Program-made: the position numbers and the translations under genes | Source: Poseidonia sp. | GTDB taxonomy: Archaea > Thermoplasmatota > Poseidoniia > Poseidoniales > Poseidoniaceae | Direction of reading: 5' to 3' | DNA: 28,323 nucleotides | Assembly: GCA_034402455.1 (NCBI GenBank) | Contig: DASCRS010000036.1 | Span: 1 to 28,323 of the forward strand | Notes under the pieces: generated by a model | What the model saw: the letters and a program-made list of their open reading frames with translations, nothing else | The model's database searches: none | What the model was told of the DNA's origin: nothing | Shown here: positions 5,211 to 14,693 of the stretch, piece after piece | Position numbering within the stretch: the stretch's first letter is position 1 | Layout: each line of letters begins with the position of its first letter

Positions 5211-5870
5211 CTAAGGGCTTCGTCTTCGGATTTCATCTGAGAAGAAATTCATGACTTTGCTTTCAACACGCTGAATTTGCGCTGAAAGTGTAGATTTGGA
5301 AACACCCAAAAGTTCAGCAAGTGTGGTGAGGGTGATCTTTCTTTGAGGGTCGTAAAATCCCTCTCTAATCGCAATATCATAGACTTGACGTTGTCGTTCT
5401 GTCAACAACCGGCTCGAGGTGCTTCGAGTGGACACTAATCGGTGTGGAATATTTTCGTGCTTAAATTCTTCAATGAGTTTTCTCATTTTGTGTCTATCGC
5501 ATTCAATCACCCAATCAACCCATCCATCACGAATTTCAAATGGGGTTCTTGGAATGACGTGCAATTGCAACAAAGGTTTGAGGAAACCCCCTCCTCCAGC
5601 ATTAATAGTTACATGATAGCGATTGCTTTCAACCATTTCAAAGTCTGCTACTCCAAGGTGAGTCATGATGGTGGTCGACAAATCTTCGGTTGAAGAAATG
5701 ATACCTGATCCTTGACCTTTGGCCAAGGCCATGTGTTCGTCTATTCGAATAATAGAAGAAGGATGGCTTCTGGAAACATCGCCAGCCCAATGTCCGTTGG
5801 GTAAACGTACTTCAATTCTCATTTGGTGCGTTGTTTTGTTCTCTTCTCGTGGTTGTGACTTTATCGCCAT
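5211..5870 (-). CDS. HTH_10 (bacterio-opsin activator Bat / DmsR / NarO-type HTH) transcriptional regulator
   Basis: C-terminal LTERQRQVYDIAIREGFYDPQRKITLTTLAELLGVSKSTLSAQIQRVESKV is the HTH_10 signature. Confidence 0.9.
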   Translation of the reverse strand: MAIKSQPREENKTTHQMRIEVRLPNGHWAGDVSRSHPSSIIRIDEHMALAKGQGSGIISSTEDLSTTIMTHLGVADFEMVESNRYHVTINAGGGGFLKPLLQLHVIPRTPFEIRDGWVDWVIECDRHKMRKLIEEFKHENIPHRLVSTRSTSSRLLTERQRQVYDIAIREGFYDPQRKITLTTLAELLGVSKSTLSAQIQRVESKVMNFFSDEIRRRSP

Positions 5871-5933: not shown

Positions 5934-5975
5934 ATAAATAGCATTTGGGCGAACATCTCTTTACGAACATGTTCG
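5934..5975 (-). promoter_or_regulatory. Promoter of the HTH_10 gene: TATA-like element plus two CGAACAT boxes, one a perfect palindrome
   Basis: CGAACATCT at 5950-5958 and the 14-bp palindrome ACGAACATGTTCGT at 5963-5976. The minus strand reads CTATTTAT at 5941-5934. Confidence 0.75.
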
Positions 5976-5984
5976 TGCTGCTCA

Positions 5985-6599
5985 TTAGTCATCCATTGAT
6001 GAGTTCATTTGTTCCATGGTGATGATGAAAATAGCCGCAAAACCTACTCCCAAAAGGATGGTTGCGATCTCTCCTGAAGTGAATCCATCCGGTCCATCAA
6101 CAATAACCGCCTTTTTTGATGTGGTTATGCTTGTCGTGTCTTTCGTCCAGTGGTCACCACTTCCAGCTATACCATCGCCATTCACAGCATTACCGTATGT
6201 TGTGAAGGTTACAACAGTACCTTTGGAAGGTGCGTTCCATTGAACCGTCCAAGTCCGCTCATCGTTTCCTTCAGAGGTATGTGTTGCCTCTCCATCAAGT
6301 ATTTGCGTGAATATGTCCATTGAACCAAGGGTTCCAGTTGAAGCCCGAAGATTGAATCCTCCAGTGTTCAATCCGCTCGATTCTGGACCAGTGAGATTCA
6401 CATAAACAGTGTATGATTCACCGTGAGTCCAATTGAGGGGAACGCCTTCCACTGTCAGAGCAGCCTCATCTGAAATAGCGCCATCTCCATGACATGTACA
6501 TCCTGAATTAACACCATTTATTCCACTACTATAGCCGTTTGATAGGGGTGCTATGAATATCAATAGAAATGCGCAACTTACTCCAATGAGGTACCTCAT
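5985..6599 (-). CDS. Secreted, C-terminally membrane-anchored choice-of-anchor V / Reeler-like protein with a CxCH motif
   Basis: Signal peptide, SGCTCHG, GGFNL, THT, WTVQWNAP, GNAVNGDG and a C-terminal TM helix. Clearly paralogous to the Cox1 N-terminal domain. Confidence 0.8.
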   Translation of the reverse strand: MRYLIGVSCAFLLIFIAPLSNGYSSGINGVNSGCTCHGDGAISDEAALTVEGVPLNWTHGESYTVYVNLTGPESSGLNTGGFNLRASTGTLGSMDIFTQILDGEATHTSEGNDERTWTVQWNAPSKGTVVTFTTYGNAVNGDGIAGSGDHWTKDTTSITTSKKAVIVDGPDGFTSGEIATILLGVGFAAIFIITMEQMNSSMDD

Positions 6600-6636
6600 G
6601 GTGGTGCCTTAACCTTCTATATCACAAAGGTTAGAA

Positions 6637-6656
6637 CGAACATGTAAGCCCAACAT
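6637..6656 (-). promoter_or_regulatory. CGAACATGT-N7-ACAT box upstream of the CxCH protein
   Basis: CGAACATGT at 6637-6645, 38 bp from the ATG at 6599. Second ACAT at 6653-6656. Confidence 0.75.
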
Positions 6657-6668
6657 CTCAGATGCCTT

Positions 6669-7226
6669 TTATCGCAAAAATGGGTATTGCTCAACAATTC
6701 GAATACGACTCCACCACGAACCGAGCCCCCATGTGTCTCCACAGCGCATGTTCGCCATGCCAAGGCAGAGGATGGCATAGATTAGGTGATGATCGAAAAA
6801 AGGATTGTGTTCCTGTGGTATCGCAGATAACCAAATCATGAACAACATGAATGCACCAGAATAACCGCCAATCTGTGTACCCATTCCTGTGATGAATGCT
6901 AAGCCTACCATAAGTAGGCCAATCATGAAAAGCCATTCAACAGTAACACTGGTAGAAAGGCTTTGGAACCAATCTGCAAAAGGCCCTTGAGTGCTGTATT
7001 TGAGAAAACCTTGGGTTGGGTGACCACCGTTCACCCAGGCCTCCTCGCATCCAAATTTAGCTGATCCACCAACATTGCATGTAGAATCCCCTAGGCCAAA
7101 CGTTCGGTCCAAAAATGGCCATAAAAATACACAGCCCATTGCAATTCGAATCAGTGACCAATATCGCTCTTGAAGGAAATTAAACATGGTTGTTTCCTGT
7201 TCCGATTCTGCTTGAATTGGCGACAT
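6669..7226 (-). CDS. DoxX / DoxD-like membrane protein
   Basis: LIRIAMGCVFLWPFLDRTFGLG, WVNGGHPTQGFL, EWLFMIGLLMVGLA, HNPFFDHH and GDTWGLG. Start at 7226 has GGAG 7 nt upstream. Alternative start at 7187. Confidence 0.8.
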   Translation of the reverse strand: MSPIQAESEQETTMFNFLQERYWSLIRIAMGCVFLWPFLDRTFGLGDSTCNVGGSAKFGCEEAWVNGGHPTQGFLKYSTQGPFADWFQSLSTSVTVEWLFMIGLLMVGLAFITGMGTQIGGYSGAFMLFMIWLSAIPQEHNPFFDHHLIYAILCLGMANMRCGDTWGLGSWWSRIRIVEQYPFLR

Positions 7227-7275
7227 TAGGCATCTCCATATGGCGCATATGGAGGATATGTAGAGTATCCTACGC

Positions 7276-7295
7276 CGAACATGTCCCACTTACAT
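7276..7295 (-). promoter_or_regulatory. CGAACATGT-N7-ACAT box upstream of the DoxX gene
   Basis: CGAACATGTCCCACTTACA matches the 14675 site at 18 of 19 positions. It overlaps only a spurious ORF extension. Confidence 0.75.
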
Positions 7296-7311
7296 CAGTT
7301 TCGTAGACATT

Positions 7312-7842
7312 CTAACTACCCTCTGACATATTCCCCGCAGTTGCACCTGCCTTGGGTTGAACAGAAAAAACACCGCTCTCAGTATTGGAGGTTTTTCCAC
7401 AAAAAATCGCACAGTCAACAATCACTGAACCAGCACCAGGGATGTCAATTTGACACATTCCAGTACTCGAAAAGGCATACTCTCCCGGTGCGGGTGCGGT
7501 AAAGACCACACTGCTAGGGTGAGTCAAATCAAATGAATATGAGAGATTCAAATCAGGTACAGTGAGTGAATCAGCGATGAAGTGCTGTTCGTCGTATTTC
7601 CTAAAATGGAGACGTACACATTCATCTTCCTCAAATTCAATTGATGCGGTTTCAAACGTCATGTCGTAATTGACACAACCGTCATCAATCATCGTTTGAT
7701 CTTTGCACTCCTCCAAGAAGGAGCCCACCTCTTCATCACAAATGCTGGTTGACTCAGTGAACATCAGATTCGATGAAAATGATATCAGAACCATAATGGC
7801 ACAAATCAAATGCCCTTTGGCAATTTTCCAATCATTCTCCAT
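7312..7842 (-). CDS. Membrane-anchored cupredoxin-like protein with a degenerate copper site
   Basis: N-terminal hydrophobic helix, then SLTVPDLNLSYSF..VVFTAPAPGEYAFSSTGMC, a cupredoxin-type core lacking the usual first Cys, His and Met. Start overlaps the nirK stop (7842, or 7848). Confidence 0.65.
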   Translation of the reverse strand: MENDWKIAKGHLICAIMVLISFSSNLMFTESTSICDEEVGSFLEECKDQTMIDDGCVNYDMTFETASIEFEEDECVRLHFRKYDEQHFIADSLTVPDLNLSYSFDLTHPSSVVFTAPAPGEYAFSSTGMCQIDIPGAGSVIVDCAIFCGKTSNTESGVFSVQPKAGATAGNMSEGS

Positions 7843-9253
7843 CTTCATCGTAAACGGTGGTGTTTTCCGCACCAGTCACAGAAATAATGCCTATGGCTCC
7901 TTTGTGGAAGGCACGTGTAAGGGCGTGGTCAACCAAGATGTAGTTCGCAGGAACTTCAAAGACAAGGTCAACAATAACAGCTCCACCTGGGGCAACTATA
8001 ACGGTTTGAACGCTTTCCAATGGAGCACTTTCGGTGCTTGCTAGATTGTAGGCTCGGTCGAAAATCTCACCAATGACGTGGAATGATGAAATGGTATTTG
8101 GACCTCCAACTCCGAAATAAATCCTCATTGATTCTCCGACATTTGCTTTGATGGTATCATCTCCAGTGAAGGTTGCAAATTTGCCATTGAACACGACGTA
8201 GGTTGGGCGTTCGTCAAAGAGCGCATCAACATCCATTTCTTGATGACCTTCGGTGCCAGGGCGCCATTTTGTGTACAAATCGCCCTGCATGACGTAAATT
8301 TCTTTGTCGACTTCCGGCAGTGGAACTTCGGGTTCAATGTAGATCATTCCGTACATGCCTTTGCTGATGTGAGTTGGGATGTCAGGTGTCGCGCAGTGGT
8401 ACACATAGAGTCCAGAATGCATGGCAAGGAAGGAGAATGATGTCGATTCTCCTGGAGCGGTCGTCGTTGCTTCAGCTCCGCCTCCTTGTCCAGTTACAGC
8501 ATGGAAATCCACGTTGTGATGCATCATGCTTTCAGCACGATTGCTGAAATGAACAATTACAGTATCGTTAATTCGTGCTCGGAACATTGGCCCTGGTACG
8601 GTTGCGTTGTACGTCCAATATGTGAAGGTCGTACCAGGTTCAAGCTCTGCAGTGACCTCAACAGCCTCAAGATAGATGTGAACCGTGGTTGATGTGTTGC
8701 GCCCTGTTGGTCCAGGAATATCGTAAGGGTCCTTGGCGATATTGTCAACATCGACGGTCAATGCTGGGCCGATGTTTTCAATTAGCGTTGTACTTGACTG
8801 CCCAGAACCAACAATGAGCGTTCCGACCATTCCACCAGCACGGTGCCCTGCAATGCTACAAAAGTATGCAAATTGGCCCTGAGTATCAGCAACAAAGGTG
8901 ACAGAATCTTCAGATCCAGATTCAGTCAATTGTTTTGTCGCAACATCATAACCTTCTACGGAAATATCGTGAAGATTCATTTCACCCATTTCCAAGGTTA
9001 TGGTCACACGATCACCGGTTTGTACCGATAGTTCGGGGTTGACCAGGCCGTCGATGGAACCACCAACACCGATGTAGGACATTTCCTTGCCTTTGAGTGT
9101 GAATTCAACGTCATTGTACATGACTACGCATTTACCATCAACCAGCTCTGTATCCTTGCCACAGGTTGTCGTCGTTTCTTCGTCTCCCAAACAGCCAGAG
9201 AACCCAGCAGTTATCATCACAAGTATCATTATCATTACATTTATTTTTCTCAT
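7832..9253 (-). CDS. nirK: Copper-containing nitrite reductase, lipoprotein, with an extra N-terminal type-1 cupredoxin domain
   Basis: HNVDFH, YVYHC..PTH..KGMYG, SSFHVIGEIFD and LVDH give all T1/T2 Cu ligands plus the catalytic Asp and His. The N-domain has LHD..YFCSIAGHRAGGM. Lipobox-like FSGC. GAGGTGG site before the ATG at 9253. Confidence 0.93.
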   Translation of the reverse strand: MRKINVMIMILVMITAGFSGCLGDEETTTTCGKDTELVDGKCVVMYNDVEFTLKGKEMSYIGVGGSIDGLVNPELSVQTGDRVTITLEMGEMNLHDISVEGYDVATKQLTESGSEDSVTFVADTQGQFAYFCSIAGHRAGGMVGTLIVGSGQSSTTLIENIGPALTVDVDNIAKDPYDIPGPTGRNTSTTVHIYLEAVEVTAELEPGTTFTYWTYNATVPGPMFRARINDTVIVHFSNRAESMMHHNVDFHAVTGQGGGAEATTTAPGESTSFSFLAMHSGLYVYHCATPDIPTHISKGMYGMIYIEPEVPLPEVDKEIYVMQGDLYTKWRPGTEGHQEMDVDALFDERPTYVVFNGKFATFTGDDTIKANVGESMRIYFGVGGPNTISSFHVIGEIFDRAYNLASTESAPLESVQTVIVAPGGAVIVDLVFEVPANYILVDHALTRAFHKGAIGIISVTGAENTTVYDEDGE

Positions 9254-9297
9254 CGTAATACCACCTCTAGTGGTTGTTTCGTGGTCTGTGTTGGGTA

Positions 9298-9324
9298 TTA
9301 TAGCCCCGGCCACGAACATATTAG
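9298..9324 (-). promoter_or_regulatory. nirK promoter: CGAACATATTAG box plus TATA-like CTATAA
   Basis: Box at 9313-9324. Minus-strand CTATAA at 9303-9298, the same box-to-TATA spacing as at cox3 and the CBS gene. Confidence 0.7.
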
Positions 9325-9342
9325 GCGGAGGTGTACGATTCC

Positions 9343-11514
9343 TCACTCGCCCTCTTGGGCGAACGGGTGACCAATAGAATGGTCAAAATTATGAGGTGGT
9401 GGAGGGGATGAAACTGTCCATTCAAGGGTTGACCCATTCCATGGGTTTGGCCCTGCGATCTCACCGTGTTTCATACTGCGCCAGAAGTTGTAAAAGAACA
9501 ACAATTGCCCAGCAAAGACCACAAAACCACCAATGGTAGCAATAAGATGAGCGACTTCCCAGCCAGCTGATTCTTGATAGAAATATATTCTTCGGGGCAT
9601 GTCAGTCAGACCAAACAAGGGAATCCATGTGAGGTTAATTCCAATAAATGTAATCCAGAAATGGTACATTCCCAATTTCTGGTCCATCATTCGACCGAAC
9701 ATCTTCGGGTACCAATAGTAAATTCCACCCAAAGTCATGACTGCAACGGCACCCAGCGTATAGTGGAAATGCGCAACTAGATAATAGGAGCCTCTCAAAT
9801 TGACATCCATGGCGACACTTGAGAGGTAGACACCAGTAATACCTCCAACAAGGAAAATACCGATGGCTCCGGTCACGAAGACAAGAGGAAGTTTTTTCCA
9901 ATCTGGCTTTGAGCGATAAAAAGTTGCTAGCAAGGAGAGATAAATCAAACCGAATGGAACGCTAACAAGTTCCGTTCCAATGGTTTCAATTTTCCTGAAT
10001 GTAGGATTGATTCCAGTGATGAACATATGGTGTGCCCATACCAATACCGATATGATTGAGGCAACAACCAAGGAATAAATGATGATTTTTCGTCCGTAAA
10101 GTGAACGACGGACCGTGTTGGGGATAATTTCCATGGCCATTCCCAATCCTGGTAGGAGGACAATGTAGACCTCGGGATGTCCGAAGAACCAGAAAATATG
10201 CAACCACCATGTTGTTCCATCGATGCTTGGGTCAAAGAACATGGTTCCAAAGACTCGGTCACCAACAAGCATGAGCACCGCTGCCATGAGTGCAGGGAAC
10301 ACCGCGAGCATCAAAATGACGGTAAAAAGAATGTTCCATGTGAACATGGGCATCTTCATCAATGGCATTCCAGGTGTTTTCATTTGCAAGATTGTGACAA
10401 GGAAATTGACCGTGCTAAACGTGACAGAAAGAATCAACAAAACCAGCCCAGCACCCGCCAGACTTATTCCAGCACCAGGGCTGTATTCTATGCTCGTCAA
10501 GGGGCTATAGAACGTCCAACCAGCATCCGCAGCGCCACCAAAGAAGAATCCACTTGCGGCAACGAGGCCGCCAAAGAGAATCATCCAAAATGACATTGCA
10601 TTGAGACGTGGGAAGGCCATGTCCTTGGCTCCAATTTGAAGAGGGACAATGTAATTTGCAAAAGCAAAGGACATTGGAGATACGGCGAACAGAACCATAA
10701 CGGCACCGTGCATGGTGACCGCTTCGTTGAACAACCCTCCAGTCATGAAATCATTATCCGGTACGATCAATTGGATTCGGATGAGCAAAGAGAGCGCAAG
10801 TCCGATAATGGTGAACAAGAGTGTGGTCCAAAGGTAGAGCATTCCGATGTCTTTGTGATTGGTCGTTGTCAACCAATGCATGACTGTTTTTTTGTCCACT
10901 GCTGGGTTTCTGACCATAAGTACAACCACTGCTGCAACCAAGCCAAGGATGGTCAAAACAATGAGCCACCAAGCAAGATTTGTGAAATCAATGATTGGTC
11001 CGCCGTCGGAATTTAACCCTTCTACCAAGATTTCTTGGCTTGACCAAAGGTCTCCAGCAGAATTCAAACCGTCTCCGTCAACGGCGTTGCCGAATACTTT
11101 GAACGAAATGTCGTCGGTGTCATCAAGAGGAGCATTCCATTGAACTGTCCACTCTCTTACATCGTTCCCCTCAAGTGTATGAGTCATCTCAATTCCCTTA
11201 TTTGGGCCATCAATCACTCGCGTGTGGTTGTCAAGCGAAACAAATTCGCCCCCATCAGCATGCAGGTTGAATCCACCAGAGTTTGCTCCGCTCGCTTCAG
11301 GACCCCCAGTGATGTTGATGGTGAGTTCGTAGCTTTCGGAGCCGTTGTAAACGTCTGGTAATCCTGTGATGGTTACTGTCACATCGTTGGATGCACTTCC
11401 TCCTCCGTGGCATGTACATCCACTGTCGACATTAGCGATTCCGTTGGAAACACCTTCCATCGTAGGGGCAAATGCAATCAAAACAAGAATTGCCATTGCG
11501 AGTAAACGCTTCAT
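9343..11514 (-). CDS. coxA: Heme-copper oxidase subunit I (A1-like) with a fused N-terminal extracellular CxCH domain
   Basis: TMHG, KDMAFPRLN, GWTFYSPL, WFFGHPEVY, WAHH, AHFHY and MPRR. Signal peptide, about 160-aa domain and an extra TM helix precede the core. ATGA overlap with cox2; GGAGGTGG site upstream. Confidence 0.95.
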   Translation of the reverse strand: MKRLLAMAILVLIAFAPTMEGVSNGIANVDSGCTCHGGGSASNDVTVTITGLPDVYNGSESYELTINITGGPEASGANSGGFNLHADGGEFVSLDNHTRVIDGPNKGIEMTHTLEGNDVREWTVQWNAPLDDTDDISFKVFGNAVDGDGLNSAGDLWSSQEILVEGLNSDGGPIIDFTNLAWWLIVLTILGLVAAVVVLMVRNPAVDKKTVMHWLTTTNHKDIGMLYLWTTLLFTIIGLALSLLIRIQLIVPDNDFMTGGLFNEAVTMHGAVMVLFAVSPMSFAFANYIVPLQIGAKDMAFPRLNAMSFWMILFGGLVAASGFFFGGAADAGWTFYSPLTSIEYSPGAGISLAGAGLVLLILSVTFSTVNFLVTILQMKTPGMPLMKMPMFTWNILFTVILMLAVFPALMAAVLMLVGDRVFGTMFFDPSIDGTTWWLHIFWFFGHPEVYIVLLPGLGMAMEIIPNTVRRSLYGRKIIIYSLVVASIISVLVWAHHMFITGINPTFRKIETIGTELVSVPFGLIYLSLLATFYRSKPDWKKLPLVFVTGAIGIFLVGGITGVYLSSVAMDVNLRGSYYLVAHFHYTLGAVAVMTLGGIYYWYPKMFGRMMDQKLGMYHFWITFIGINLTWIPLFGLTDMPRRIYFYQESAGWEVAHLIATIGGFVVFAGQLLFFYNFWRSMKHGEIAGPNPWNGSTLEWTVSSPPPPHNFDHSIGHPFAQEGE

Positions 11515-12245
11515 TGTGCACCACCTCCAGAATACCATTGGTCAAAATCGGATTTCTCCATAACTTCGAGTTCACCAATCATGACGGCATGGTCTGCCCC
11601 ACACAATTCATAACAACGAATTGGATAAGTTCCCGTTTCTTCAGCCAAAATCCATCCTATGTTTGGACGACTTGGGAGTGCATCAACCTTAATTCGGTGT
11701 TCTGGCAAGGCGAAGGAATGAAACACATCTCCGCCAATGACTTCGAACACGACTGGGGTGTCAACCGGGATTCGTAATGGTTCATCGGTGGCACTGGTGT
11801 AATTGATTCCATTGGGGTATTCGTATTCCCAATAATACTGCCATCCCGTGACTTGCACGGTGAACGATTCCTCCTCAAGTTCTGGTGTCTCAAAAAATTT
11901 GATTGAATCGAAAGTAACTGAAGAAAGGACGAGAAGAAATACAGTAATGATTACTGTAAGGCTCCATGAAAGTTTGACATTTCCTCGTTCAATAGGCATT
12001 TGTCCCAAGAAAGGAGCATCCGAAGGTTCGACTTCCACTTCAGTCGTTACCAACCAAAGGAAGAAACCGTAGACAGTAACGGCTACAATACATCCTAATG
12101 TCCAGTAAATCAAGAAGAGGTTGTCGTATACCTTGGCGTGTTCTCCAGTTCCAGGTTCTTGGAACCATTTGATGATTGAGCCAAAGGTCAGCATAAGAAT
12201 AACAATCGAGAAGAAAATGAGTCCAAATGCCCGTTTATTCTGCAT
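11511..12245 (-). CDS. coxB: Heme-copper oxidase subunit II, CuA type, no cytochrome c domain
   Basis: Two TM helices, GWQYYWEYEY, DVFHSF and CYELCGADHAVM. GGAGGT site and ATGA overlap with cox3. Confidence 0.95.
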   Translation of the reverse strand: MQNKRAFGLIFFSIVILMLTFGSIIKWFQEPGTGEHAKVYDNLFLIYWTLGCIVAVTVYGFFLWLVTTEVEVEPSDAPFLGQMPIERGNVKLSWSLTVIITVFLLVLSSVTFDSIKFFETPELEEESFTVQVTGWQYYWEYEYPNGINYTSATDEPLRIPVDTPVVFEVIGGDVFHSFALPEHRIKVDALPSRPNIGWILAEETGTYPIRCYELCGADHAVMIGELEVMEKSDFDQWYSGGGAQ

Positions 12246-13057
12246 CAGATAACCTCCACATATACAATCAAGAACAGCACCATCCAAACCACATCAACAA
12301 AGTGCCAATACCATACAATGGCTTGGAATGAATCCCTTCTTCCGTTGTCATAGTATCCTTTTTTGTGTAAGAAAGCGACCCCCCCTAAGGCAATGATTCC
12401 AACCAATACATGGAGTCCATGCAATCCTGTTAAGGCAAAGAAAGCGGTGCCATAAGGATGGTCTTTCCATGTGAACCCTGTATGCATATATTCATACAAT
12501 TGAATAGCCAAAAAGAGAGCACCAAAAGCGATGGTAATGTACAGATTCTTTCGAGAACGAACCAGTGAACCCCGGTCATGGGCGTGAAGAGAAAGGTGGG
12601 CTATGATTCCCGAAGAAAGCAATAATGCAGTGTTGAACATCACCAGCATCATGTTGTGGTGAATCTCTGCTGGTGGCCATGAAGATGAGGCGATTGCTCC
12701 ATCCCAAGAAACAGTGTGCCATTTCGCCCAAAACCAAAATGCAAAGAATCCCGCAAAAACAATGACTTCTGTGAGGATAATCCATACCATTGCCCACGAA
12801 GCATGGCCCATTTTGTGGGTTGAAATCTCACGAAATTGCCAGAGATCAACATCTTCTCTAACCCAAGAGAATATCGACCACACCAACATTGGAATTGCAA
12901 GGAAAGCGATGGGCCATATGAGTAAAGAAGCAAGTGTTAAGGTTACTGAAAGTGAAAAGATTAGAGGTACCAAACTGGAATGAACTTCTCCAGGTTCTCC
13001 GTGAGCATCCATGTTGATTTTCCAAAGCGATTCATTCGGTAAGTGTTCACCATCCAT
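12245..13057 (-). CDS. coxC: Heme-copper oxidase subunit III
   Basis: LTEVIVFAGFF, WPP, NTALLLSSG, FFALTGLHGLHV and YWHFVDVVW. Start 13057 is supported by promoter geometry. Confidence 0.93.
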   Translation of the reverse strand: MDGEHLPNESLWKINMDAHGEPGEVHSSLVPLIFSLSVTLTLASLLIWPIAFLAIPMLVWSIFSWVREDVDLWQFREISTHKMGHASWAMVWIILTEVIVFAGFFAFWFWAKWHTVSWDGAIASSSWPPAEIHHNMMLVMFNTALLLSSGIIAHLSLHAHDRGSLVRSRKNLYITIAFGALFLAIQLYEYMHTGFTWKDHPYGTAFFALTGLHGLHVLVGIIALGGVAFLHKKGYYDNGRRDSFQAIVWYWHFVDVVWMVLFLIVYVEVI

Positions 13058-13079
13058 GGATATTCCAGGGGAGAGAAGA

Positions 13080-13115
13080 ATATACATTGTAACACGAACA
13101 TGTAGGGGGGACATG
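13080..13115 (-). promoter_or_regulatory. cox operon promoter: CGAACATGT-N7-ACATG box plus TATA-like GTATAT
   Basis: Box at 13095-13103, 38 bp from the ATG at 13057. Second ACATG at 13111-13115. Minus-strand GTATAT at 13085-13080. Confidence 0.75.
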
Positions 13116-13143
13116 CCTTACCAGTGTTGGAGTTCCAAGATTC

Positions 13144-13737
13144 ATGAGGGCTGATACTTCAATTGTACTAAGCCTCTTGATTTTAGGAGCATTTCTTTCG
13201 CTTTCCCCACTAATCTTATTTGGCGACTCAGAGCAATTGAATACGGTCACACGAGACGATTTATCCGTTGAACAAATTTCATCATTAAACAATGGGACCT
13301 TCGCTAAAAGTCTCAAAGATAATGATGCCATCATCATTACATCGGCGATTATTGTCAAAGATTCCTTGTTCATCGCAGGTGAATTTTCTGGAGAAATTAC
13401 CATTGGAAATCAATCCTATCTCAGCCAAGGATCTTCGGATCTAATCATGGCAAGGCTTGCACCAAATGGAACATGGATTTGGGTTGAGGTTCTTGGGGGA
13501 GCTGGTAATGACCGTGACGTAACATTTGAGTACAAAAATGAACAATTATTCGTAAAGGGCTCAATTTTTGGTGAAATCAATACTACATCGGGTTATACGG
13601 TAGGCAGTGGAGAAAAAAATGGCCATGAAAGGATTATTGGAGAAATTTCAGTTGAAAACGGTACCTGGAAGTTGCTTACAGTTGACCCGTTTGGAGACCT
13701 AAGTGCGAACCCCTCTCTATGGTGCGGATGGCGATGA
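13144..13737 (+). CDS. Hypothetical membrane-anchored or secreted beta-rich protein
   Basis: N-terminal TM or signal helix. IAGEFSGEITIG..DLIMARLAPNGTWIWVEVLGGAGND resembles archaeal surface beta-propeller repeats. Confidence 0.7.
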   Translation: MRADTSIVLSLLILGAFLSLSPLILFGDSEQLNTVTRDDLSVEQISSLNNGTFAKSLKDNDAIIITSAIIVKDSLFIAGEFSGEITIGNQSYLSQGSSDLIMARLAPNGTWIWVEVLGGAGNDRDVTFEYKNEQLFVKGSIFGEINTTSGYTVGSGEKNGHERIIGEISVENGTWKLLTVDPFGDLSANPSLWCGWR

Positions 13738-13744
13738 TGGGCCC

Positions 13745-14167
13745 TTAGATGTGATCTAGAAGAGCCTCATTGTGAACGAAAGACCATCCATATGCATGGA
13801 AGTCCTTTTTGTCAATTTCTTCAATTTCGCAGCCAAGATGCGACCAAATCAATTCGATGTCGCCTCTTACTTCCATTCGATAAGAGATAATGTCCATCCA
13901 TTTTTTCTTTTGTGTAGTGTCCATCAGCAATATAACTCCGAGGTCTTCGTTAATCTCTTCAAGGGTTGAATGGATTGTTTTTCCTTTGATTTTCAATCCA
14001 TTCTTTGCTGGATCAACGATGAAATATTCCCAATTATCTTTCTCCAATTTTGTGATGATTGACAACCAAGAGTGGTGGTCAATGTTTGAATCGCCAAGAA
14101 GGGCAATTTGCTTCAAACTACGAGCATATTCAATGATCTCATTCGGAAGAAGGTGTTGGTGGGCCAT
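13745..14167 (-). CDS. Divergent CoA-binding (YccU-like) Rossmann domain protein
   Basis: IALLGDS, FIVDP, KGKTIHSTLEEI, IWSHLG and FVHN follow the YccU pattern loosely. Confidence 0.55.
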   Translation of the reverse strand: MAHQHLLPNEIIEYARSLKQIALLGDSNIDHHSWLSIITKLEKDNWEYFIVDPAKNGLKIKGKTIHSTLEEINEDLGVILLMDTTQKKKWMDIISYRMEVRGDIELIWSHLGCEIEEIDKKDFHAYGWSFVHNEALLDHI

Positions 14168-14217
14168 GAGGAGCGATTCTCTTTAGGAGCCTTGTATTTT
14201 TCACGAATATGTCCGTC

Positions 14218-14637
14218 TTATGGGAAATTTTTGTTTTGATTCATGTGCTCAAGAACCGATTGCAATGTGACCAAGCCCAGAATATTTCCATCTTGAATTA
14301 CTGGCAGGCGCTTTACATTGAATGCAGACATCTGCAAGTAGGCGTCATCAATCGTACACAGAGGCCCAATATGATGCAACGCTCTCAGATTAAATGAATA
14401 CAAGGGTCGTTTCCAAAAAGCCTTGATTTGAACCTCACGTTCTTCTTGTAAACGAAGCATTTCTGTTGAAGTGATTATGCTCCACGGACGATTATCTTGG
14501 TCCAAAATTACAAGAGTGCAAGTTCCAAGCTTGCCGATATAATCAGCGGCATCCAAGAAACATACATCAGATGTGATTAGAGGGGGGGAGCATGACATAA
14601 ACTCCCCAACCGTCAATTTATTGCTCAACCTTGGCAT
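14218..14637 (-). CDS. CBS-pair protein
   Basis: VGEFMS..PP, ..WSIITSTEML and AYLQMSAFNVKRLPVIQDGNILGLVTLQSVL form two CBS motifs. Confidence 0.85.
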   Translation of the reverse strand: MPRLSNKLTVGEFMSCSPPLITSDVCFLDAADYIGKLGTCTLVILDQDNRPWSIITSTEMLRLQEEREVQIKAFWKRPLYSFNLRALHHIGPLCTIDDAYLQMSAFNVKRLPVIQDGNILGLVTLQSVLEHMNQNKNFP

Positions 14638-14659: not shown

Positions 14660-14693
14660 ATATAGACTTGAAAGCGAACATGTCCAACTTACA
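14660..14693 (-). promoter_or_regulatory. CBS gene promoter: CGAACATGT-N7-ACA box plus TATA-like CTATAT
   Basis: Box at 14675-14683, 38 bp from the ATG at 14637. Minus-strand CTATAT at 14665-14660. Confidence 0.75.

Follow-up and report, generated by a model that had tools for sequence, protein, structure and literature searches.

The locus examined here raises two questions: what is controlled by a short archaeal transcription factor in which a sensor domain is not readily recognised, and whether the perfect palindrome lying in its own promoter is the site at which it acts. The window, by which we mean the whole 28,323-nt stretch of Poseidonia DNA that was analysed, has a GC content of ~46%, and its closest protein relatives are annotated as Candidatus Poseidoniaceae (Marine Group II, MGII). 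Our preferred answer, to which we give a probability of roughly 0.7, is that the protein (hereafter P0001) is a Bat-like factor dedicated to an accessory respiratory island, which it controls through the palindrome CGAACATGTTCG, and that it is autoregulated. The gene and its two predicted domains are the following:

5211-5870, minus strand: regulator gene P0001, a 219-aa ORF with a BAT-like N-terminal domain and an HTH_10 domain
5415-5822, minus strand: N-terminal domain (residues 17-152), alpha/beta, of probable diverged BAT type, from the structural model, Foldseek, hhalign and invariant columns
5250-5405, minus strand: HTH_10 DNA-binding domain (residues 156-207) with putative recognition helix KSTLSAQIQRVE, from Pfam

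The C-terminal part of P0001 matches HTH_10 (PF04967) in Pfam at residues 156-207 with 59.5 bits for a cut-off of 23.1 (E 2.9e-16). No Pfam or NCBIfam match was obtained for residues 1-155, no PAS or GAF domain was matched by Pfam over all 219 aa, and the protein contains a single cysteine (C124) and ten histidines. In these respects, Pfam, NCBIfam and the amino acid composition bear out the initial annotation, which had described an HTH_10 regulator with no obvious PAS or GAF domain, one cysteine and about ten histidines. Its statement that there is no recognisable sensor domain holds for direct Pfam matches, the BAT family (PF15915, "GAF and HTH_10 associated domain") being missed in P0001 even at E 10, but the N-terminal domain proves to be BAT-like when profiles (hhalign, 99.9%) and structures (Foldseek matches to Bat, NarO and DmsR) are compared. 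Indeed, Bat, HVO_1357, NarO and DmsR were the only strong matches to the AlphaFold model of P0001 (pLDDT 84) in AFDB Swiss-Prot. Weak Pfam BAT matches occur in just four of 30 marine family members (best E 0.0011). Since P0001 itself has no direct Pfam BAT score, the call of this domain rests on transitive homology and fold. Searching the PDB with the sequence returned nothing, and searching it with the model by Foldseek gave no convincing match (an M20 peptidase, Sapep/DapE, and Ta1207 at TM 0.43); likewise, NCBIfam returned nothing for the N-terminal domain and the cluster names of its distant relatives offered no clue to function. Residues 1-16 are modelled with low confidence and weakly conserved, so that translation may instead begin at Met17 (nt 5822). 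Judged from sequence and predicted fold, P0001 is a short BAT-plus-HTH_10 transcription factor of the nirK-cluster type.

The structure most similar to the P0001 model is the C-terminal BAT plus HTH_10 module of Bat from Halobacterium salinarum (E 3e-12 in Foldseek, over residues 12-210). Bat acts from an upstream activating site. It differs from P0001 by its length (674 aa), by PAS and GAF sensor domains that P0001 lacks, and by its operator and regulon. NarO and DmsR (Haloferax volcanii, Halobacterium salinarum) resemble P0001 in size, C-terminal HTH_10, predicted fold (Foldseek E 3e-10 to 2e-8) and association with alternative respiration. However, NarO (pHV3) carries a DmsR_N domain (PF24277, E 4e-39) and a CxnCxCx7C motif with four N-terminal cysteines, and P0001 has neither; the sequence similarity between the two is confined to the HTH, and no CGAACATGTTCG-like box is present in the narO-nar intergenic region of H. 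volcanii. On the grounds of domain, cysteine motif and similarity, we rejected P0001 as a member of the NarO/DmsR group. The cysteine richness of NarO, mentioned in the initial annotation, is real: the H. volcanii sequence contains a CxCx7C stretch.

The P0001 gene is preceded by an intergenic region of 114 bp that contains two putative operator boxes:

5964-5975, palindromic: distal box, perfect palindrome CGAACATGTTCG, a 12-mer sequence match
5950-5961, minus strand: proximal box, reading AAGAGATGTTCG on the gene strand; its centre is 14 bp from that of the distal box, and 9 nt separate it from the TATA-like element downstream
5934-5940, minus strand: TATA-like element TATTTAT of the regulator promoter, predicted from sequence

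The perfect 12-mer is unique both within the window and across the 1.1-Mb metagenome-assembled genome (MAG), in line with the earlier description of two boxes in this promoter, one of them the only perfect intergenic palindrome. The proximal box is half-conserved, its TATA-proximal half ...GATGTTCG alone being kept, and the position of TATTTAT implies a regulator transcript with a predicted 5' leader of ~40 nt. Sites with at most two mismatches number nine in the window for 1.3 expected, a figure that none of 100 shuffles reached. The oriented 9-mer ACATGTTCG is present 19 times in the MAG; ten copies are intergenic in a genome that is ~93% coding, and six of those ten fall in the 9-kb cluster described below, the regulon list being partial since the MAG is 55% complete. 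Wherever two boxes occur together, in every lineage examined, they are spaced 14 bp centre-to-centre (12-bp boxes, 2-bp spacer), or about 1.3 helical turns. The tandem pairs are at these positions:

Window: 5950-5975
Locus L004: 9894-9919
Locus L006: 10624-10649
Locus L014: 7930-7955 and 9340-9365
Locus L087: 8619-8644

Upstream of the regulator, the minus strand carries in order genes for a choice-of-anchor-V protein, a DoxX-like protein, a cupredoxin-like protein, NirK, Cox1, Cox2, Cox3, a 140-aa ORF and a CBS-domain protein. The boxes are distributed over this cluster as follows:

5985-14637, minus strand: predicted regulon with anchor-V, DoxX-like, cupredoxin-like, nirK, a second A-type heme-copper oxidase, the 140-aa ORF and the CBS protein
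9343-11538, minus strand: cox1
11511-12287, minus strand: cox2
12245-13057, minus strand: cox3
6637-6648, minus strand: box before the choice-of-anchor-V gene (5985-6599), 38 nt from the ATG
7276-7287, minus strand: box before the DoxX-like gene (probable start 7226)
9313-9324, minus strand: variant box, gene strand CTAATATGTTCG, before nirK (7832-9253), 10 nt before TATAAT
13095-13106, minus strand: box before cox3-cox2-cox1, arranged as box, 10 nt, TATATT, 21 nt, ATG
14204-14215, minus strand: variant box before the 140-aa ORF (13745-14167)
14675-14686, minus strand: box before the CBS-domain gene (14218-14637), arranged as box, 10 nt, TATATC, 21 nt, ATG

On the gene strand, the transcription units share one layout, in which ...ACATGTTCG is followed after ~10 nt (14 nt in two cases) by a TATA-like hexamer. 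At these target promoters, conservation of the palindrome is confined to the TATA-proximal half. The distance from the hexamer to the ATG is ~21 nt in most units (cox3, CBS and anchor-V), so that the genes would be leaderless and the box would sit just upstream of BRE/TATA. The longest ORFs of cox3 and of the DoxX-like gene run through the operator box (13058-13114 and 7227-7289). Homologue lengths and promoter geometry indicate that cox3 actually starts at 13057 (270 aa, matching relatives) and the DoxX-like gene probably at 7226.

P0001 has close paralogues, and their distribution bears directly on the question of which protein reads the box. Its own genome contains three HTH_10 genes, one of which (C104:326-949) encodes a protein 51% identical to P0001 with a nearly identical recognition helix (KSTLSAQIQRVES against KSTLSNQLQRIES). 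Regulators of P0001's kind (type A, 72-91% identical) adjoin nirK in all five distinct loci and cox3-cox2-cox1 in four of the five; one or two boxes precede their own ATG by 82-119 nt in 5/5 loci, and the boxes of cox3 and of the anchor-V gene stand at a distance of exactly 38 nt. Type B is encoded in 91 of 99 genomes of the family. Its gene lies directly upstream of an operon for a PaaA/BoxB-like di-iron protein of 386 aa, from which it is separated by a tandem palindrome. In other lineages, type C (~30% identical) occupies the position of P0001 after the anchor-V gene and is directly followed by type B. In a maximum-likelihood tree, the P0001 clade (support 100/100) falls inside the type-B radiation, near one genus, and the long-branched type C lies alongside. 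The BoxB-like operon (C104:326-2169, which is L001; also L006, L008, L014 and L103-L107) additionally encodes a 178-aa protein of no known function, an EamA transporter and a 3-hydroxyacyl-CoA dehydrogenase; in MGIIb and in genome G128, it forms one continuous stretch with the oxidase cluster. In family f3 and G128, the genes follow the order cox3-cox2-cox1-(orf)-anchorV-regulator-BoxB-like operon; palindromes precede cox3 and anchor-V and, in G128, the BoxB-like gene too. This organisation suggests that a single ancestral regulon, comprising the di-iron enzyme and the second oxidase, may have been split later on. A relative of 69% GC (L013) shows no linked boxes.

It is conceivable, although we regard it as unlikely, that the boxes of the cluster are served mainly by the type B paralogue. 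P0001 would then be dispensable, form heterodimers with it, or compete with it for these sites as a modulator or anti-activator. The near-identity of the recognition helices, the prevalence of type B in the family, always beside the same palindrome, and the single regulator placed between oxidase cluster and BoxB-like operon in f3 and G128 all speak in this direction. With such a helix and the same tandem box in one genome, whether P0001 or the C104 paralogue would occupy a given box is ambiguous at the level of sequence. However, wherever the oxidase/nirK cluster stands apart from the BoxB-like operon, or exists as an extra copy, it is accompanied by its own adjacent regulator, whose promoter has a tandem box (window, L004, L095-L097, L014, G100 and G108), and the P0001 clade is a separate, well-supported lineage. 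The initial annotation had considered that co-occurrence of the box with a different regulator across genomes would speak against P0001 as its binder. Such co-occurrence is found, with type B beside the BoxB-like operon and type C beside the oxidase cluster, but every regulator concerned is a paralogue of the same family.

The preferred reading, a regulator dedicated to the accessory island, gains from the distribution of the island itself, which was surveyed in 201 Poseidoniales species genomes with window-type cox1 defined as at least 67% identical. This second oxidase was found in 14 of the 201 genomes and a family regulator in 14/14, on the same contig and at most ~2 kb downstream of cox1 in 12 of them, the other two being contig breaks; nirK was found in seven of the 201, again with a regulator in every case (7/7), counts that span nine genera and come from related genomes, hence are not independent trials. 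In family f3, where there is no type B alone, the regulator is present in 12 of 99 genomes, ten with the oxidase, one with nirK and one represented by a weak HTH-only match, and no genome of this family has the oxidase without the regulator. Genomes with type B only have a single cox1, 38-39% identical to that of the window and located in a cox2-cox1-cox3 operon. This housekeeping operon carries no box. It is also present in P0001's own genome, split at contig ends (C88:2739-3809 and C54:37-1143), and housekeeping and window oxidases are 34-40% identical there and 35-39% identical in relatives. We therefore discarded the idea that the window oxidase is the organism's main one, given the additional box-free housekeeping cox operon at ~35-40% identity. 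The accessory oxidase/NirK island, present in ~7% of sampled species, thus very probably comes with its own switch.

The perfect palindrome is more frequent than the regulator in family f3 (31 versus 12 of 99 genomes). Five regulator-less f3 genomes were checked, and four of the sites (L098-L101, in G039, G053, G021 and G019) turned out to lie inside a conserved gene of ~396 aa, in which CCGAACATGTTCGG encodes P-N-M-F-G. From its N-terminus (LPGDG.G...IPCGGEH), we take this gene to encode an isopropylmalate/isocitrate-type dehydrogenase. These palindromes were rejected as operators and are regarded as coding coincidences of the P-N-M-F-G codons, which are a source of false operator matches in genome-wide motif scans.

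Support for a cognate pair also comes from another phylum. In Haloferax mediterranei, the motif of the nor and nos promoters is exactly CGAACATGTTCG, that of nirK is CGAATATGTTCG, and the consensus is CGAAYATDKTYG (PMC10062603; PMC11218638). Point mutations of the box lower promoter activity in this species (PMC10062603). According to a transcriptome paper of 2024, the binder of CGAAYATDKTYG "remains undisclosed", and a Bat-like gene of the nirK-nor cluster, E6P09_00735, was proposed as the candidate: its promoter contains the motif, and its expression rises under denitrification together with that of the targets (PMC11218638). Using tblastn against plasmid records, we found full-length matches to P0001 in many haloarchaea at 26-33% identity. 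The homologue of Haloferax larsenii (WP_007541329.1, 213 aa; 31% identity over 205 aa, E 3e-24 in BLASTP) is encoded between qNor (norB) and nirK, and that of Haloprofundus beside nirK. The H. larsenii protein, the sole haloarchaeal one scanned, reaches the Pfam threshold for BAT (28.5 bits, cut-off 25.8) in addition to HTH_10, and profile-profile comparison by hhalign joins the marine (30 sequences) and haloarchaeal (12 sequences) families at 99.9% over 200 columns (E 1e-33).

The box follows the regulator in these organisms as well. The H. larsenii locus has three perfect boxes, before a radical-SAM gene, the regulator itself and nirK, and five with one mismatch, among them those of the halocyanin and norB promoters. 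In 28 of 32 haloarchaeal species, a box with at most one mismatch is located 26-47 bp (mostly 43) upstream of the regulator ATG, and nirK and/or norB lie within 6 kb of the regulator in 22 of the 32. In these species, the perfect 12-mer occurs 35 times in 371 kb for ~0.02 expected. Besides, regulator orthologues in Halodesulfurarchaeum MAGs (L038, L039, L042-L044 and L046) keep the box in their own promoter; no nirK or norB was found within 6 kb of the regulator in these loci, whose regulon must consequently differ.

P0001 and the haloarchaeal nirK-nor regulator (E6P09_00735; WP_007541329.1) are thus alike in size (~210-220 aa), in a BAT-type N-terminal domain joined to HTH_10 with full-length homology, in adjoining nirK, in the lack of an N-terminal cysteine motif, and in having an identical 12-bp box at their own promoter and at neighbouring respiratory genes. 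Yet they share only ~31% identity, and P0001 belongs to another phylum (Poseidoniales, 46% GC, marine plankton). The haloarchaeal regulon centres on nor/nos, whereas that predicted for P0001 centres on a second heme-copper oxidase, with boxes that are mostly reduced to a half-site before target genes and paired 14 bp apart before the regulator gene. Moreover, the haloarchaeal counterpart is itself a proposed regulator (PMC11218638). As far as sequence comparison allows, P0001 is a cross-phylum addition to the group of short Bat-like HTH_10 proteins associated with the CGAAYATDKTYG operator. This box travels with one such family across two archaeal phyla, the regulator's own promoter included. 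As homologous regulators in two phyla have the same box at their own promoter and at neighbouring respiratory genes, it is very probable that P0001 binds the box as its cognate protein and controls its own gene, and that it is the autoregulated switch of the accessory oxidase/NirK island. The earlier proposal that P0001 binds the box and controls itself thereby receives support of a comparative kind. The comparative evidence for a cognate regulator-box pair is strong, and it bears on the question of the denitrification binder in haloarchaea. In Marine Group II, which is abundant and uncultured, it delineates a compact regulon that could be traced in metatranscriptomes.

How such a regulator would operate can be outlined from promoter architecture and haloarchaeal analogy. 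P0001 would bind the palindrome CGAACATGTTCG, presumably as a dimer given the symmetry of this operator, and would switch on the accessory island, i.e. the second A-type heme-copper oxidase, NirK and membrane/copper accessory proteins. At target promoters, it would act from one well-kept half-box ACATGTTCG ~10 nt upstream of the TATA element of mostly leaderless genes. Archaeal activators sit just outside BRE/TATA. At its own promoter, the two boxes placed 14 bp apart next to the TATA element may provide positive autoregulation. Domain content, box positions, homology and co-occurrence are results of the analysis; from them we infer DNA binding, the dimeric state, activation over repression and the trigger alike.

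The opposite sign of regulation was also considered: P0001 may bind the box as a repressor, so that both the island and its own gene stay silent until it is released by a signal. The short distance between boxes and TATA elements (9-14 nt) is compatible with this possibility, and the two adjacent boxes of its own promoter could hinder TFB/TBP assembly. However, the boxes end upstream of the BRE position and cover neither TATA nor start site, box mutation in H. mediterranei lowers promoter activity, and the homologous regulator goes up with its targets (PMC10062603; PMC11218638), so that we hold repression to be distinctly improbable. The location of the box just upstream of BRE/TATA, together with the activating box and the co-induction seen in Haloferax, rather points to P0001 being an activator. 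It is very improbable that the box is read by an unrelated factor (another TF family or a specialised TFB), HTH_10 adjacency reflecting hitch-hiking on a mobile island: although the binder is at most a candidate in any organism, the island is patchy and nirK has apparently been exchanged between families, the own-promoter box recurs in two phyla (46% and 63% GC), even without nirK/nor (Halodesulfurarchaeum) and at the unrelated BoxB-like operon, and the palindromes of regulator-less genomes are the dehydrogenase coding coincidences (P-N-M-F-G) noted above.

By analogy with the haloarchaea, the trigger of the proposed activator is probably low oxygen or nitrogen oxides. MGII nirK transcripts have been reported in suboxic samples only (PMC5596340). 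An island with its own switch bears on how "aerobic" archaea cope with oxygen-poor water. As P0001 lacks PAS, GAF and a cysteine motif, its signal would enter through a lineage-specific conserved pocket of the N-terminal domain or indirectly, via partners or expression level; the protein contains no heme or Fe-S motif. The N-terminal domain of the marine family displays the invariant motifs GHWxGD, EHM, GGGG and PF.xRDGW, common to types A and B. Within EHM, Met47 is invariant and His46 conserved, and His27, His71, Asp31/Asp115 and Trp117/Trp120 are further invariant residues. His27, His71, GGGG, Trp117 and Trp120 are invariant in the marine family but absent in the haloarchaeal one. The residues invariant in the marine domain may line a pocket for a ligand or belong to an interface. 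A bolder proposal, which we hold as tentative and rather doubtful, is that the marine BAT-type domain is a new sensor with a metal (copper?) or gas/redox site built without heme, Fe-S or cysteine, from His27/His71, EHM, Asp31/Asp115, Trp117/Trp120 and the GGGG loop. In such a scheme, paralogues A (oxidase/NirK) and B (BoxB-like) would read different signals at one shared operator, and the regulator-box pair would be ancient or laterally shared with Halobacteria. If true, two inputs would converge on one operator in a respiratory circuit of an uncultured and globally abundant archaeon.

Finally, some observations made beyond the cluster concern the possible extent and history of the regulon. 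On contig C60 of P0001's own genome, a further ACATGTTCG site (C60:4951) precedes a Bcp-like peroxiredoxin gene by 155 nt, and in the type-A relative L004, an AhpC/DUF899 gene (10740-11336) directly follows the regulator. An oxidative-stress arm of the regulon is possible in view of these peroxiredoxin and AhpC/DUF899 neighbours. In the same vein, a box CGAACATATTCG precedes the gene of a ScdA_N/hemerythrin di-iron protein right after the regulator in another MGII lineage (L015 3735-3782), an arrangement reminiscent of the haloarchaeal regulon with its DUF2249/hemerythrin-like accessory genes. As for nirK, the gene of an MGIIb genome (G041:C8:644-2068) is 85% identical to that of the window (7832-9253), the best cox1 of that family being 72% identical, which hints that nirK moved between two MGII families independently of the oxidase.
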